Shown here one piece after another: positions 15,691 to 29,522 of a stretch of DNA of 64,000 bases; positions within the stretch are counted from its first letter, which is position 1, and each line of letters starts with the position of its first letter. The stretch covers positions 315,456,001-315,520,000 of the forward strand of contig OZ024743.1 in the NCBI GenBank assembly GCA_964016885.1. The letters are read 5' to 3'. The notes beneath the pieces were generated by a model. The model saw only the letters and a program-made list of their open reading frames with translations. It was not told where the DNA came from and did no database searches. The stretch is from Eledone cirrhosa. Taxonomy: Eukaryota. The translations under genes were made by a program, and so were the position numbers.

Positions 15691-16187
15691 TATATGAATG
15701 TATGTATGGTATATTTAGCAATATACCGTATGTTTAATTAAAAACATTTAGAAGACCATACGCTATCTGTTTTCAAGTAGTGACTATGTCACTTCTTTTC
15801 GTTAAACATACGGTATATTGCTAAATATACTATACATACATTCATGTATACATCGCTATTTGAGAGCACCAATCCTAATACCTAATTGTTGCTGGACCGG
15901 CAATCGCTCTGTATAATCCGCTCCTGATTATTACTGGAATTCTCTAAGAATCCAGCTTCTATAATTTTCGGCGTAAGAAGGGGAGTACGTGGCTCTGATG
16001 ATCGCCAACCAGCTAGAAACAGACTGTCAGCTTCTCTCCCTTCTTTCGCCGAAAAGAAGCAAGTGACATAGTTACTACTTAAAAACAGATAGCGTATGGT
16101 ATTCTAAATGTTTTTAATTAAACATATTGCCAAATATACTATACATACATTCATGTATACATCGGTATTTCAGAGCACCAATCCTAT
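15691..16187 (+). mobile_element. Non-coding ~310-nt HHR unit (partial tandem plus inverted 5' arm), homologous to 28880-29522
   Basis: AAATATACTATACATAC at 15823 and 16132; inverted arm 15691-15801. Confidence 0.8.
15991..16032 (+). ncRNA. Type I hammerhead ribozyme (canonical C3-G8)
   Basis: GGCT-CTGATGA-TCGCCAACCAGCTA-GAAA-CAGACT-GTC-AGCT. Confidence 0.8.
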
Positions 16188-17479
16188 ATATATATATATA
16201 TATATATATATATATATATATATATATATATATATATATATATATATATATATATATATATTGTATATATATATATATATAATTGTCGTGGCTTTTTCGA
16301 CTTGAAATGTATAATGAAAATAATTTCCTTTACATCCTGTTCAATATATTATAAATGAAACAGCTGCATTTGGCTAAAAGATGACGTTTGGATATAACTA
16401 ATATAGGAAGTTTCCTTCGCTGTTCTGTACTATGTCAATGAACGTTCCGACAAAACACCTGTTGTTACTTCCTCATACATTTTCCTTAACATGTACTGCG
16501 AGATGTTAAATGTCTACATTTACATCAATGGAGTGTAATACAATTAATATTTCTTCACCAACGGACTTTACTTCTGTTGCGGTAGATGGTTTAGTGGTTA
16601 GTGTATTTGGCCTACGTTCGTAATATGATGAGTTCTATTCCCAGTGCTGAGTTGTCTCTTTGGTCAAGACCCTTAATTCATGCTGTTCCAATCCACTCCT
16701 CTGAGAAAAAAAGAGGTTTATGTTAAGTTCAAAGGGATAGCTTTGTCACACACTGCGTCACACTGCATGTCCCTGAGATATACGATACGTATGCATGTGG
16801 TGAGTATGTTTGGCTCGTTATTGTACGGTTGGGAGTTGGATTACCGGTGGTGTGTTGCGTCTATTCCATGTGTAAGACGCTTTATTTTACGTTGGTTTAG
16901 TCGACTCATCTGATAAAATGAAGTCGTACTGGTAGTTCAAAATGACAGCCTTGAAAGACACTATCACACTGAATCTCTCTGGGAAGTATATTATGGGTGT
17001 ACGTATCTATGAAATGCTCAGTCACTTGTGCGTTAATTTCACGAGCAGGTTTTTCCCGTTGTTCGAACTACTAGAATAGTCATGGCTGTTACTGGCGGGG
17101 GTCCAGTACGACTATTTCACTACTAGTATGATCACATGATCAGTGTAGCTCTTTTGCCAATCACAAAAGTGCAGTTGGAATGATAAATACCTTCGGTTTT
17201 TGTACCGTAGCTCAGATGTGAGAGAAATCTCTTCACGGATAAGACGGTGTCTCTACTGTCTCTCAGATGTGACACATATCTCCTCACATATAAGACGAGT
17301 TCTGTACTGTCTATCAGATGTGAAAGAAATTTTCCTATTGATATGACGGTTTCTGTACCGTCGCTCAGGTGATAATATCCTTAATAAGGCATGAACAAGA
17401 AATTTACAGCTCACACCTACGATGTTCAATCTCATAGGAGTTGTTTTAATGATAGCGTTACCAGCCTTATCATGAAAAA

Positions 17480-17590
17480 TAAAGTGAAATGAAGCGTCTT
17501 GCACAAGAGCACATTGCACCGCCAATCCAAGATTCGAACCCACGACTTTATGATCGGAAGTCCAACACTGAAACCACTAGGCAATGCGCC
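17480..17590 (-). mobile_element. tRNA-derived SINE (second family); related old copies at ~16582-16900, 17810-18110, 35970-36240
   Basis: Minus strand A-box TTGCCTAGTGG and B-box GGTTCGAATC followed by GTGCTCTTGTGCAAGACGCTTCATTTCAC. Confidence 0.7.
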
Positions 17591-18847
17591 ATTCCTTTAT
17601 AATTCATGATGGAGACTGTTTTTGTTTTTGTTTTGCGTTGTTGTTATTTGCGATAGTGTATTGTATAATGAATCCTTCTACATTTTTACCGCATTAGGAT
17701 ATGAACTAAAAAAAGATGCTACTCATATTTCTAACACCTATACGGACCGCATAGAGACTGCCTCATTGATATGTGTATTGGTACTGTAATTAAATTATGA
17801 TATATATGTGTGTTCACCCTCCTTCGGTTCCGAAGTATGGAACAGCCTGCTCGTGAAATTAACGTCCAGGTTACAGATATGAGTACCCTTTATGTAATTC
17901 TCAGGGAGATACAATGTCACACAATGTATTTCAAGGCTGGTATTTTGAATTACACGTACACCTTAGTTTTGACAACTGCTTTAACTAGACCAGCATAGAC
18001 TAAATGTCTTGTTAAAGTGTCTAGCTCAAAGACGCAACGCGCCACAACGAGTAGAACTCACGGACTTATGATCGTGAGGTGAGCCCTCTAAACCTTAAGC
18101 CACTCATTTTCACAAAGTAAGCACATTAAACGAGAATAAAAGATATCTCTATGTGATGATGAAAAACTCAACTAATTCCTCTACTTGATTTGATTTGACA
18201 AGATTATATTGCCAATTATTACACTAGCTGCCTAATAATATATACATAGTTAAGTTTTGTTCTGAATATGTGTTCAATGAAAAGTTACACTTTAGCTTAT
18301 TATTTCACACCTATTATATATTGCGGTAAAGACCAGTTTGCTTTAATGGTGTCGTCGAAAAAGATAATCACTTATCCTCTACGGCTTCCCTTTAAAAATG
18401 AACCTTAGAACGAAAGTAGAGCGTATAGTGATTCAAAGTTGTCAGTTGTCAAACTCATTAGAACGTCGGATAAAATGGTTTGCGGTACTCATTCCAGCTC
18501 TCTGCAATCTGAATTTAAATCCCATTAAGGTCAACATCTACACTCGAGTTAGGTTTATTTAAAAGATTTTCCTATTGACGTATATTTAAAGGATTATCCT
18601 ATAAATCCCATCCATAGATTCAGCAAACACAACTCAACACAGGATTTACACAATTTTTTGTATTAGTTTGTTTTTTTTCTCTTCATTATCAACAAATATT
18701 CTCCAGGATCTCCAAGTATTTTCTACTGCCTGAAGTTAATAAATATCGCCAATCCCCCCTTTCTCTCGCTCTCACTCTCACTCCTCTTTCATCTCTTTCT
18801 CTCTTTCTTTTACTCTTTATCTCTCTTTCTTTCACTATATCATTATT

Positions 18848-19027
18848 GGCAGTATCGGTAGAGGGTCGGACGCCATGCTCTTCAGCATAGAACTACGACC
18901 CTTTACGATCTGAGTTCAAATCCCACCGAGGTAACTTTGCCTTTCATCCTTACGGGGTCGATAAAATAAAGTACCAGTAAGCACCTGGATAATTGCTAGC
19001 CTTGTGCCAAATGTAGAAACAATTATT
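18848..19027 (+). mobile_element. Full-length tRNA-derived SINE
   Basis: A-box TGGCAGTATCGG, B-box GAGTTCAAATCC, central GCCTTTCATCCTTACGGGGTCGATAAAATAAAGTACC, tail GTAGAAACAATTATT. Confidence 0.9.
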
Positions 19028-28321: not shown

Positions 28322-28663
28322 TATATATATATATATATATATATATATATATATATATATATATATATATATATATATGTGTGTGTGTGTGTGTGTGTGT
28401 GTGTGTGTGTGTGTGTGTGTATACATATATATATATGTATTGTATATATTTATATATACATATATATGTATGTATACACACACACACACACATATATATA
28501 TATATATATATTTTTTTTTTAGTATATGCTGGTTGTATACCAACACCTCAGTATGCAGACTGGAGCACTCGACGAAGTGCTCAGGTTGGTTTGGTTACTG
28601 CGGAGTAATGTAAAATAAAGTTAAATAAAAAGTCAAATATATATATATATATATACATATATA

Positions 28664-28833
28664 ATATAGAAATGGCTTCTACAGGACTAGAACTGTTTCA
28701 TGCGTTCCTGATGATTTCTCCCGAATGAAACAGTTCTAGTCCTGTAGAAGCCATTTCTATATTAAATATATGTATACCCTGCTATGTACTGAGTATCGTA
28801 CTGTGGTTACTCCCGATTGAACCCGAGATGAAG
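28664..28833. mobile_element. Foldback PLE-end fragment with HHR core in the loop
   Basis: ~38-bp perfect arms around CTGATGA-TTTCTCCCGAAT-GAAACAGTT (28708-28735); 5' stem I strand lost at the inversion junction. Confidence 0.7.
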
Positions 28834-28879
28834 ATATATATATATATATATATATATATATATATATATATATATATAT

Positions 28880-29522
28880 TATAAATTAGAATTGGAGCTC
28901 TGAAATAGCAATATATATATGAATGTATATATAATGTATTTTGCAATACACTTTATGCTTAATTAAAAGCATTTTGAAGACCGTATGCTATTGTTTTAGA
29001 GTAGTGACAAACTCACTTACTTTAATCTCAGCAAACAAGGGGATAAGCATCAATAAATGCGAAACAAGGCCTTGTCGGCTTATCTCCCCTTGTTTGCTGA
29101 GATTAAAGTAAGTGAGTTTGTCACTACTCTAAAACAATAGATTACGGTCTTCAAAATGCTTTTAATTAAGCATAAAGTGTATTGCAAAATACATTATATA
29201 TACATTCATATATATATTGCTATTTCAGAGCTCCAATTCCAATTTTTTATTCTGCCTGACCGGCAACCGCTCTGTATAATCAGTTCCTGATTATTTACTA
29301 CAATTATATAAGAATATAACATCAGTGATCTCAGTAGATAGGAGGGAGTAGTTAGCCTTGAAAAGCATCAATAAATGCGAAACAAGGCCTTGTCGGCTTA
29401 TCTCCCCTTGTTTGGTGAGATTAAAGTAAGTGAGTTTGTCACTACTCTAAAACAATAGCATGCGGTCTTCAAAATGCTTTTAATTAAGCATAAAGTGTAT
29501 TGCAAAATACATTATATATACA
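28880..29522 (+). mobile_element. Retrozyme-like element: 318-bp unit, 1.5 tandem copies plus inverted arm
   Basis: GCATCAATAAATGCGAAAC at 29047 and 29365; 28880-29047 is inverted relative to ~29079-29245. Confidence 0.88.
29354..29398 (+). ncRNA. Type I hammerhead ribozyme, U3-A8 variant
   Basis: AGCC-TTGAAAA-GCAT-CAATAA-ATGC-GAAA-CAAGGCCTT-GTC-GGCT; stems I and II perfect, stem III a perfect palindrome. Confidence 0.88.

Follow-up and report, generated by a model that had tools for sequence, protein, structure and literature searches.

A 64,000-nucleotide stretch of Eledone cirrhosa DNA (NCBI GenBank assembly GCA_964016885.1, contig OZ024743.1, positions 315,456,001 to 315,520,000 of the forward strand; here called the window and numbered from its first letter) contains two related repeat elements, each with a motif resembling the hammerhead ribozyme, which carry different base pairs at core positions 3 and 8. 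The window was compared with the genome sequence (3.0 Gb searched). We consider it likely, on the evidence of sequence comparisons and predicted folds, that both motifs are type I hammerheads from two subfamilies of one non-coding repeat of ~319 bp, probably a retrozyme without long terminal repeats (non-LTR retrozyme) mobilised by Penelope-like elements, and that a single change from one 3/8 pair to the other left the ribozyme active.

The original prediction held that the two elements are alignable, and their alignment reaches 70.8% across 380 columns (E 1.75e-42). The hammerhead of element 1 (15991..16032, plus strand) has the core CTGATGA from 15995, with C3-G8, and that of element 2 (29354..29398, plus strand) has TTGAAAA from 29358, with U3-A8. 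The helices covary as claimed, with GGCT/AGCT versus AGCC/GGCT in helix I and ACAGACTGT versus ACAAGGCCTTGT in helix III. In element 1 the 5' strand of helix I occupies 15991-94, the core 15995-16001, helix II 16002-15 (one pair broken), GAA 16016-18, helix III 16019-27, C17 16028 and the 3' strand of helix I 16029-32; the corresponding parts of element 2 lie at 29354-57, 29358-64, 29365-78, 29379-81, 29382-93 (a 12-nt palindrome), 29394 and 29395-98. The earlier description of two members of one ~315-nt family needs to be amended: there is one repeat family, with a unit of 319 nt (316–322 bp in tandem copies), and the two elements belong to separate subfamilies that differ at ~78 places over ~260 columns and are not copies of a single source element. 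The core of the U subfamily is TTGATAA, and the TTGAAAA of the window copy reflects a private T-to-A change at variable position 7. The 15995 copy is probably decayed because its helix II is damaged (GCTA versus GCGT in its relatives).

Both motifs contain the type I core N3-U-G-A-N-N8-A ... G-A-A with A15.1-U16.1, H17 and complementary positions 3 and 8, and they form three helices, of which helix I is open-ended; covariation supports these helices apart from the broken helix II pair in the 15995 copy. The cleavage site is C17 or U17 in 88 of the 89 copies that have a base there. Every subfamily group has a loop II beginning with CAA and an internal loop in helix I; a tertiary contact between loops I and II would be conjectural. 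A type I descriptor that left positions 3 and 8 free matched nine places in the window, compared with 0–2 (6 in total) in 20 block shuffles, and one of the nine, at 12202, looks like a chance match. The position numbering and the weight given below to the pair G10.1-C11.1 follow PMC4209133 together with general background on hammerheads.

The covariation sample was drawn with a 24-nt motif common to both elements: 97 of the first 100 listed places, all on one contig, yielded 98 contexts, of which eight were dropped (two without a hammerhead, two with deletions, three truncated and one duplicate). In the remaining 90 copies the 3/8 state is U-A in 55, C-G in 30, U.G in 2, A.G in 2 and C.A in 1; thus positions 3 and 8 covary, as had been predicted, and only five copies are mismatched. 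In a tree constructed without columns 3 and 8 the C-G and U-A copies are separated by one change, and a second tree with added subfamilies agrees. The copy counts are therefore not independent evidence, and shared ancestry would confound a simple test of covariation, as the swap lies on one branch and 14 other columns show comparable association. A Fisher test on 3/8 (P 5e-20) was accordingly rejected as evidence, the copies being related. The earlier suggestion that a double compensatory change implies selection on catalysis is weakly supported by the swap itself, which is one event on one branch; the case for selection comes instead from the invariance of the core between subfamilies and from the continued compensation of helices I–III after the swap.

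Lineage-level changes affect none of the nine other core columns compared with 79 of 228 columns overall (P = 0.02, anchor motif left out) and with 56 of 111 columns near the hammerhead (P = 0.0013). This comparison is free of the hammerhead parser; P-values from parser-selected copies were discarded, since the parser itself required the core. Mismatches at 3/8 (5 of 180 sites) occur at a rate similar to that of private changes in the other core columns (25 of 795) and in other invariant columns (576 of 12,378), which fits decay of copies after insertion. Across 16 copies chosen from different subfamilies, 98% of the cells are paired and both sides change in 7 of 13 hammerhead pairs, compared with 0–2 doubly changed pairs in slid controls; here the structure was derived from the same sequences and the copies are related, so that shuffle counts are not probabilities. 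Within the U3-A8 clade, after the swap, helix II occurs as GTAC/GTAC, GCAC/GTGC, GCAT/ATGC and GCTT/AAGC, helix III as GAG|CTC, GGG|CTC, GGG|CCC and AGG|CCT, with G.U intermediates, and helix I with U-A and C-G.

The family has thousands of copies. The 24-nt motif, conserved at 15895..15918 upstream of the element 1 hammerhead and at 29258..29281 in element 2 (both plus strand), has 2,230 exact matches in the genome and none when reversed, and this number is a lower bound, since up to 1,040 more come from U3-A8 subfamilies in which the motif has changed. These further subfamilies, missed by the 24-nt anchor (loci L254–L265), have helix II GCTT/AAGC with 1,040 matches, and A8 is present in 100 of the 100 listed. 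They include a head-to-tail array of six units with a 316-bp period (L255–L260), most of which are identical over the aligned part. The unit is small and non-coding, carries one type I hammerhead and occurs in tandem copies, as expected of a non-LTR retrozyme; it contains no long terminal repeat or open reading frame (ORF), primer-binding site and polypurine tract having been given no separate search. Its insertions show an inverted 5'-truncated copy, a partial tandem, a 30–40-bp tail and a microsatellite target, a layout described for Penelope-like elements in the part of PMC8557442 available to us. An edge of (TA)5 or longer is found at 24 of 30 loci, or 20 of 25 distinct insertions, compared with 11% of random places in the window. 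The ORFs found near family copies are separate insertions. Together these features suggest that the repeat is probably a non-LTR retrozyme that is spread by Penelope-like elements.

We propose that tandem transcripts of the repeat self-cleave after C17 while the monomer does not, and that the released 319-nt monomers, which may circularise, would be turned into new genomic copies by the reverse transcriptase (RT) and GIY-YIG endonuclease that an autonomous element supplies. Under this model the source lineage, which must cleave to spread, would be under selection, and inserted copies would decay. Cleavage of tandem transcripts, circularisation and reverse transcription by a partner are all drawn from analogy with known systems, including the dimer model for such ribozymes set out in the accessible portions of PMC4209133 and of the review PMC6765202. 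The predicted folds fit that model. Six of 13 tandem dimers are predicted to form both inter-unit halves of helix III (P 0.93–1.00), and all six have the 12-nt palindrome. In element 2 of the window the downstream core and the upstream half are predicted to assemble a hammerhead at 29076. A change at positions 5 and 8 of the helix III palindrome is compensated, and by sequence reasoning these positions can pair only between two units, because only 2 nt are enclosed.

A number of observations weigh against our interpretation. The swap branch makes up 4.4% of the internal tree length, the chance of both 3/8 changes falling on it is ~0.04 for one event, and the 14 columns mentioned above track position 3 nearly as well (n = 90). 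The U3-A8 monomers are predicted almost entirely in an inactive fold: in local folds the core pairs with the 5' strand of helix III with P 0.92–0.99 in six of six, compared with P 0.10–0.99 in four C-G copies. The double hammerhead is not predicted in 7 of the 13 dimers, including all five with C3 cores. Published experiments are also cautionary, as only one of nine retrozyme dimers tested cleaved (bioRxiv 10.64898/2026.07.22.740005) and minimal Penelope-type hammerheads had low activity in vitro (PMC4209133), according to the sections seen of these two papers. Cleavage and expression of the family members are themselves presumed. No autonomous partner sharing the 319-bp unit was found among 20 GIY-YIG loci, four wider stretches and 14 GIY-YIG loci with long ORFs. 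Finally, among the best 150 of 157 Rfam matches listed, neither motif was assigned to a hammerhead family, and model RF02275 run over the genome detected one family copy, at 35.8 bits against a gathering score of 52. This lowers the Rfam label and not the fold, because the models expect a hairpin helix III. Rfam microRNA matches in the window are driven by microsatellites, fall below gathering scores and were set aside as artefacts.

We give a small chance to the alternative that structure is selected while cleavage is weak or not under selection: positions 3 and 8 would have changed jointly through different source copies, and the U3-A8 hammerhead would be a passenger in a folded RNA recognised by the reverse transcriptase. 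That the swap is one event among similarly associated columns suits this account, as do compensated changes in hairpins outside the hammerhead, the spread of Naiad elements without canonical hammerheads (reported in the part of PMC8557442 seen) and a related element family with U3-A8, A13C and a weak helix I, whose ~10,800 matches indicate that degenerate cores can amplify. Ordinary selection on helices, however, leaves unexplained why the unpaired U4, G5, A6, A9, G12, A13 and A14 are invariant between lineages while their neighbours change, and the near-universal C17 or U17 also speaks against a passenger. Less probable still, in our judgement, is that position 3 is constrained mainly by an alternative "lock" helix, in which bases 2.x–5 pair with the 5' strand of helix III and keep the monomer inactive, the 3/8 covariation being partly a by-product. 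Such a lock dominates the predicted monomer folds. In the RNAalifold consensus all 16 copies have position 3 paired with 15.4 (CG in 7, UG in 6, UA in 3), and of the 155 copies parsed out of 221, a set enriched for the best matches, 152 pair 2.1:15.5. Most transitions would preserve this helix regardless, however, and it leaves the change from G8 to A8 unexplained; moreover, the pair 3:15.4 is broken in an abundant U3-A8 subfamily whose helix III is ACATGTCATGT and which yet forms arrays of at least six units, and this contradicts a strict lock role.

An equally slim prospect, already disfavoured, is that we are dealing with pieces of the terminal repeats of an autonomous Penelope-like element and not with a free retrozyme. 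The inverted, tandem and tailed layout and the microsatellite targeting are shared with autonomous elements (PMC8557442, as far as seen), and retrozymes have been argued to derive from such repeats (bioRxiv 10.64898/2026.07.22.740005, in the portion consulted). Fragments of this kind do not account for units arranged head to tail at 316–322 bp, nor for what lies upstream of the motif, which is the end of the previous unit, an inverted copy or unrelated flank; the neighbouring ORFs are insertions of their own, and the repeats of the 14 long GIY-YIG loci have no match to the unit.

Beside the swap lie changes at the pair at the base of helix II. G10.1 is present in all 55 U-A copies, while the C-G copies of the sample nearly all have A or U at 10.1. 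Among the first 100 of 108 listed matches to a helix II of GTAC-CAACA-GTAC, a hand tally gave 68 C-G, 25 U-A and 3 C.A, while C.C, C.U, A.G and G.G occurred once each and U.G was absent; a wider pattern (first 100 of 465 listed matches, also by hand) gave 84 C-G, 5 U-A, all with G10.1, and 11 mismatches. Thus G10.1-C11.1 occurs with C3-G8, and U3-A8 is seen only with G10.1. The sister subfamilies that flank the swap differ in 12 columns and have an identical helix II (GTAC/GTAC in both), and none of the 24 copies typed mixes the two sets of seven firm columns by more than one site. No amplified mismatch intermediate at 3/8 was seen, the C3-A8 copy L206 standing outside those 24; this lack says little about 3/8, because all ~12 differences on the branch are without intermediates. 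Terminal U-A subfamilies have diverged by 1.9% (six unbiased copies) compared with 3–6% in the C-G groups, and the units of the L255 array are identical. Midpoint roots are inconsistent, falling within the C-G part of the first tree and within the U-A part of the second. If C3-G8 is taken as ancestral, as the general consensus and the little-diverged terminal U-A subfamilies would suggest, we infer, with no outgroup, a direction from C-G to U-A with G-C acquired before the swap. These results lead us to a possible, though rather doubtful, path in which A-U or U.U in helix II gave way to the stronger pair G10.1-C11.1 in a C3-G8 background, this pair was permissive for the 3/8 swap, and the U3-A8 lineage then gave rise to the youngest arrays; U3-A8 would recur elsewhere in the genome in more than 20,000 further copies of elements with RT and GIY-YIG, all with G10.1-C11.1, and one family would tolerate A13C. 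If true, this amounts to a natural test of epistasis in the hammerhead core, scored by copy number.

The layout of the two window elements is as follows. Element 1 consists of an inverted, 5'-truncated partial unit of the C3-G8 subfamily (15686..15801, minus strand; 89% to a real 319-nt monomer by blastn) and a forward part (15795..16186, plus strand) in which ~1.2 units lie head to tail, contain a single hammerhead and end in a short tail; it is flanked by (TA)n at 15628..15695 and 16185-16281. Element 2 has an inverted, 5'-truncated partial unit of the U3-A8 subfamily with a ~35-bp tail (28878..29048, minus strand; 97.7% to the monomer) and a forward part of ~1.5 units in all (29042..29535, plus strand), with (TA)n at 28834..28883 and 29513-29550. 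The forward part begins with an upstream half-hammerhead (29042..29080) comprising helix II, GAAA, the palindromic helix III and the 3' strand of helix I, with C17 at 29076 and U3-U4 missing. It continues with a complete monomer between predicted cleavage sites (29077..29394, from C17 at 29076 to C17 at 29394; 96.9% to the 319-nt monomer of tandem locus L011) and ends in a 3' partial unit (29395..29535) that runs into (TA)n. Three small conserved hairpins lie 3' of the hammerhead (16062-16140 and 29430-29510), two of them with compensated changes between the subfamilies, and the remainder of the unit RNA appears to be likewise structured. Directly after element 2, a near-perfect hairpin of ~100 nt (29546-29646) is likely an inverted fragment of another element; its matches to microRNA families are below gathering scores.

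The prediction that canonical CUGANGA searches would miss such copies holds well beyond this repeat: U3-A8 accounts for 55 of the 90 family copies, and two further element families contribute ~12,100 and ~10,800 matches. In the first of these, hammerheads with U3-A8 lie at positions 2452 and 7431 (minus strand) of locus L236, one in each of two direct repeats of ~1.07 kb. The repeats flank a 938-aa ORF with RT and GIY-YIG (L236:3809-6622, minus strand; GIY-YIG above the cut-off, RVT_1 just under it), the arrangement of an autonomous Penelope-like element that was found for this family and not for the 319-bp unit. Of its 12,143 pattern matches in the genome, 99 of the first 100 listed are U3-A8. 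Similarity to the 319-bp unit is limited to a 26-nt match (E 0.19), and U3-A8 in the two is likely, though not proven, to be of independent origin. Transfer of a U3-A8 core module from the L236 family was considered and found unsupported, given this short match and a helix II that is identical across the swap. A relative of the L236 family (L242:2076, minus strand, and L247:5898, plus strand) combines U3-A8 with A13C (GCAA for GAAA), A17, a weak U-A helix I and a nearby ORF with RT and GIY-YIG; among its 10,771 matches the first 100 listed are all U3-A8 and 97 have C13. The core may tolerate the change at position 13, or the ribozyme may be degenerate. A literature search for hammerhead and A13C returned no paper, and Lunse et al. 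on Penelope-associated variants may cover U3-A8 or A13C.

The window contains several other hammerhead motifs. Those at 41194 (plus strand) and 40934 (minus strand) are C3-G8 motifs that lie in copies inverted relative to each other. These copies are 98% identical to the stretch that immediately follows GIY-YIG ORFs at loci L239, L240, L243 and L249, and are likely a terminal repeat of another Penelope-like element. Motifs at 22630 and 22198 (minus strand) form a tandem dimer, with a 432-bp period, of another type I hammerhead repeat with C3-G8, helix III ACTAGT and A17. Two motifs of other families lie at 59055-59126 and 56330 (both minus strand), the former being the only window hammerhead among the listed Rfam matches (HH9, 37.7 bits, cut-off 52). 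Reading frames of 616 aa (60929-62776, minus strand) and 216 aa (10291-10938, plus strand) resemble, by eye, pieces of Penelope-type reverse transcriptase at other loci, with no Pfam match at 1e-3. A degenerate (ACC)n array of 7.7 kb with extreme strand skew occupies 45206-52879.

The U3-A8 swap is not new. Natural covariation from C3-G8 to U3-A8 in several hammerheads, cited as active in vitro with reference to Przybilski and Hammann 2007, is described in PMC3088659. As the variant has been in print since 2011, the present case is a well-documented further example and not a new phenomenon, and the swap bears out a tertiary pair and a natural variant that were both known before. Likewise, the part of PMC4209133 seen describes ~1,300 U3-A8 matches in Schistosoma mansoni Penelope-like elements that a canonical descriptor had overlooked, and animal retrozymes have been linked to Penelope-like terminal repeats (bioRxiv 10.64898/2026.07.22.740005, partial text). 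A literature search combining hammerhead, C3U and G8A returned nothing with all three terms and no usable kinetics with two, and one under a presumed animal group turned up no paper on the repeat family, relatives of which could be present in the supplementary alignments of PMC4209133 and PMC7229834.

In the accounts consulted in part (PMC7229834; bioRxiv 10.64898/2026.07.22.740005), metazoan non-LTR retrozymes resemble the present family in having non-coding units of 150–450 bp, low G+C content, an occurrence from monomers up to multimers, a single type I hammerhead in each unit, co-occurrence with Penelope-like elements and a self-paired predicted circle (here -82 versus -52 +/- 5 kcal/mol in mononucleotide shuffles), and axolotl HHR_Amex2 shares the U.U mismatch at the base of helix II with some C3-G8 copies. 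They differ in that the larger clade here is U3-A8, helix III is a palindrome or near-palindrome of 9–13 nt compared with 1–2 bp there, and most insertions are dispersed and have their 5' parts inverted; circular RNA and cleavage have been demonstrated for those retrozymes and are presumed for the present family. The hammerheads in terminal repeats of Penelope-like elements, among them the U3-A8 variant of S. mansoni Cercyon (PMC4209133, same portion), are also type I with a palindromic helix III and proposed dimer activity, and they share the covariation to U3-A8 in place of C3-G8 and a conserved G10.1-C11.1. Unlike them, our unit has no ORF and a long helix I (~25 bp with an internal loop), A9 is not followed by an extra base, and the two core states stand on one resolvable ladder of subfamilies. 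This ladder around the swap, the adjoining G10.1-C11.1 step and the very large U3-A8 and U3-A8/A13C families go beyond the literature compared. Their value is practical, in that descriptors fixed on CUGANGA would pass over more than 20,000 hammerhead-like copies within this single genome, and evolutionary, bearing on the function of hammerheads in Penelope-type elements. Whereas the natural core variants in the part of PMC3088659 seen are scattered examples, sister subfamilies from both sides of the swap survive here in one genome, as natural constructs for the permissiveness of G10.1-C11.1, the need for a dimer and the tolerance of A13C.

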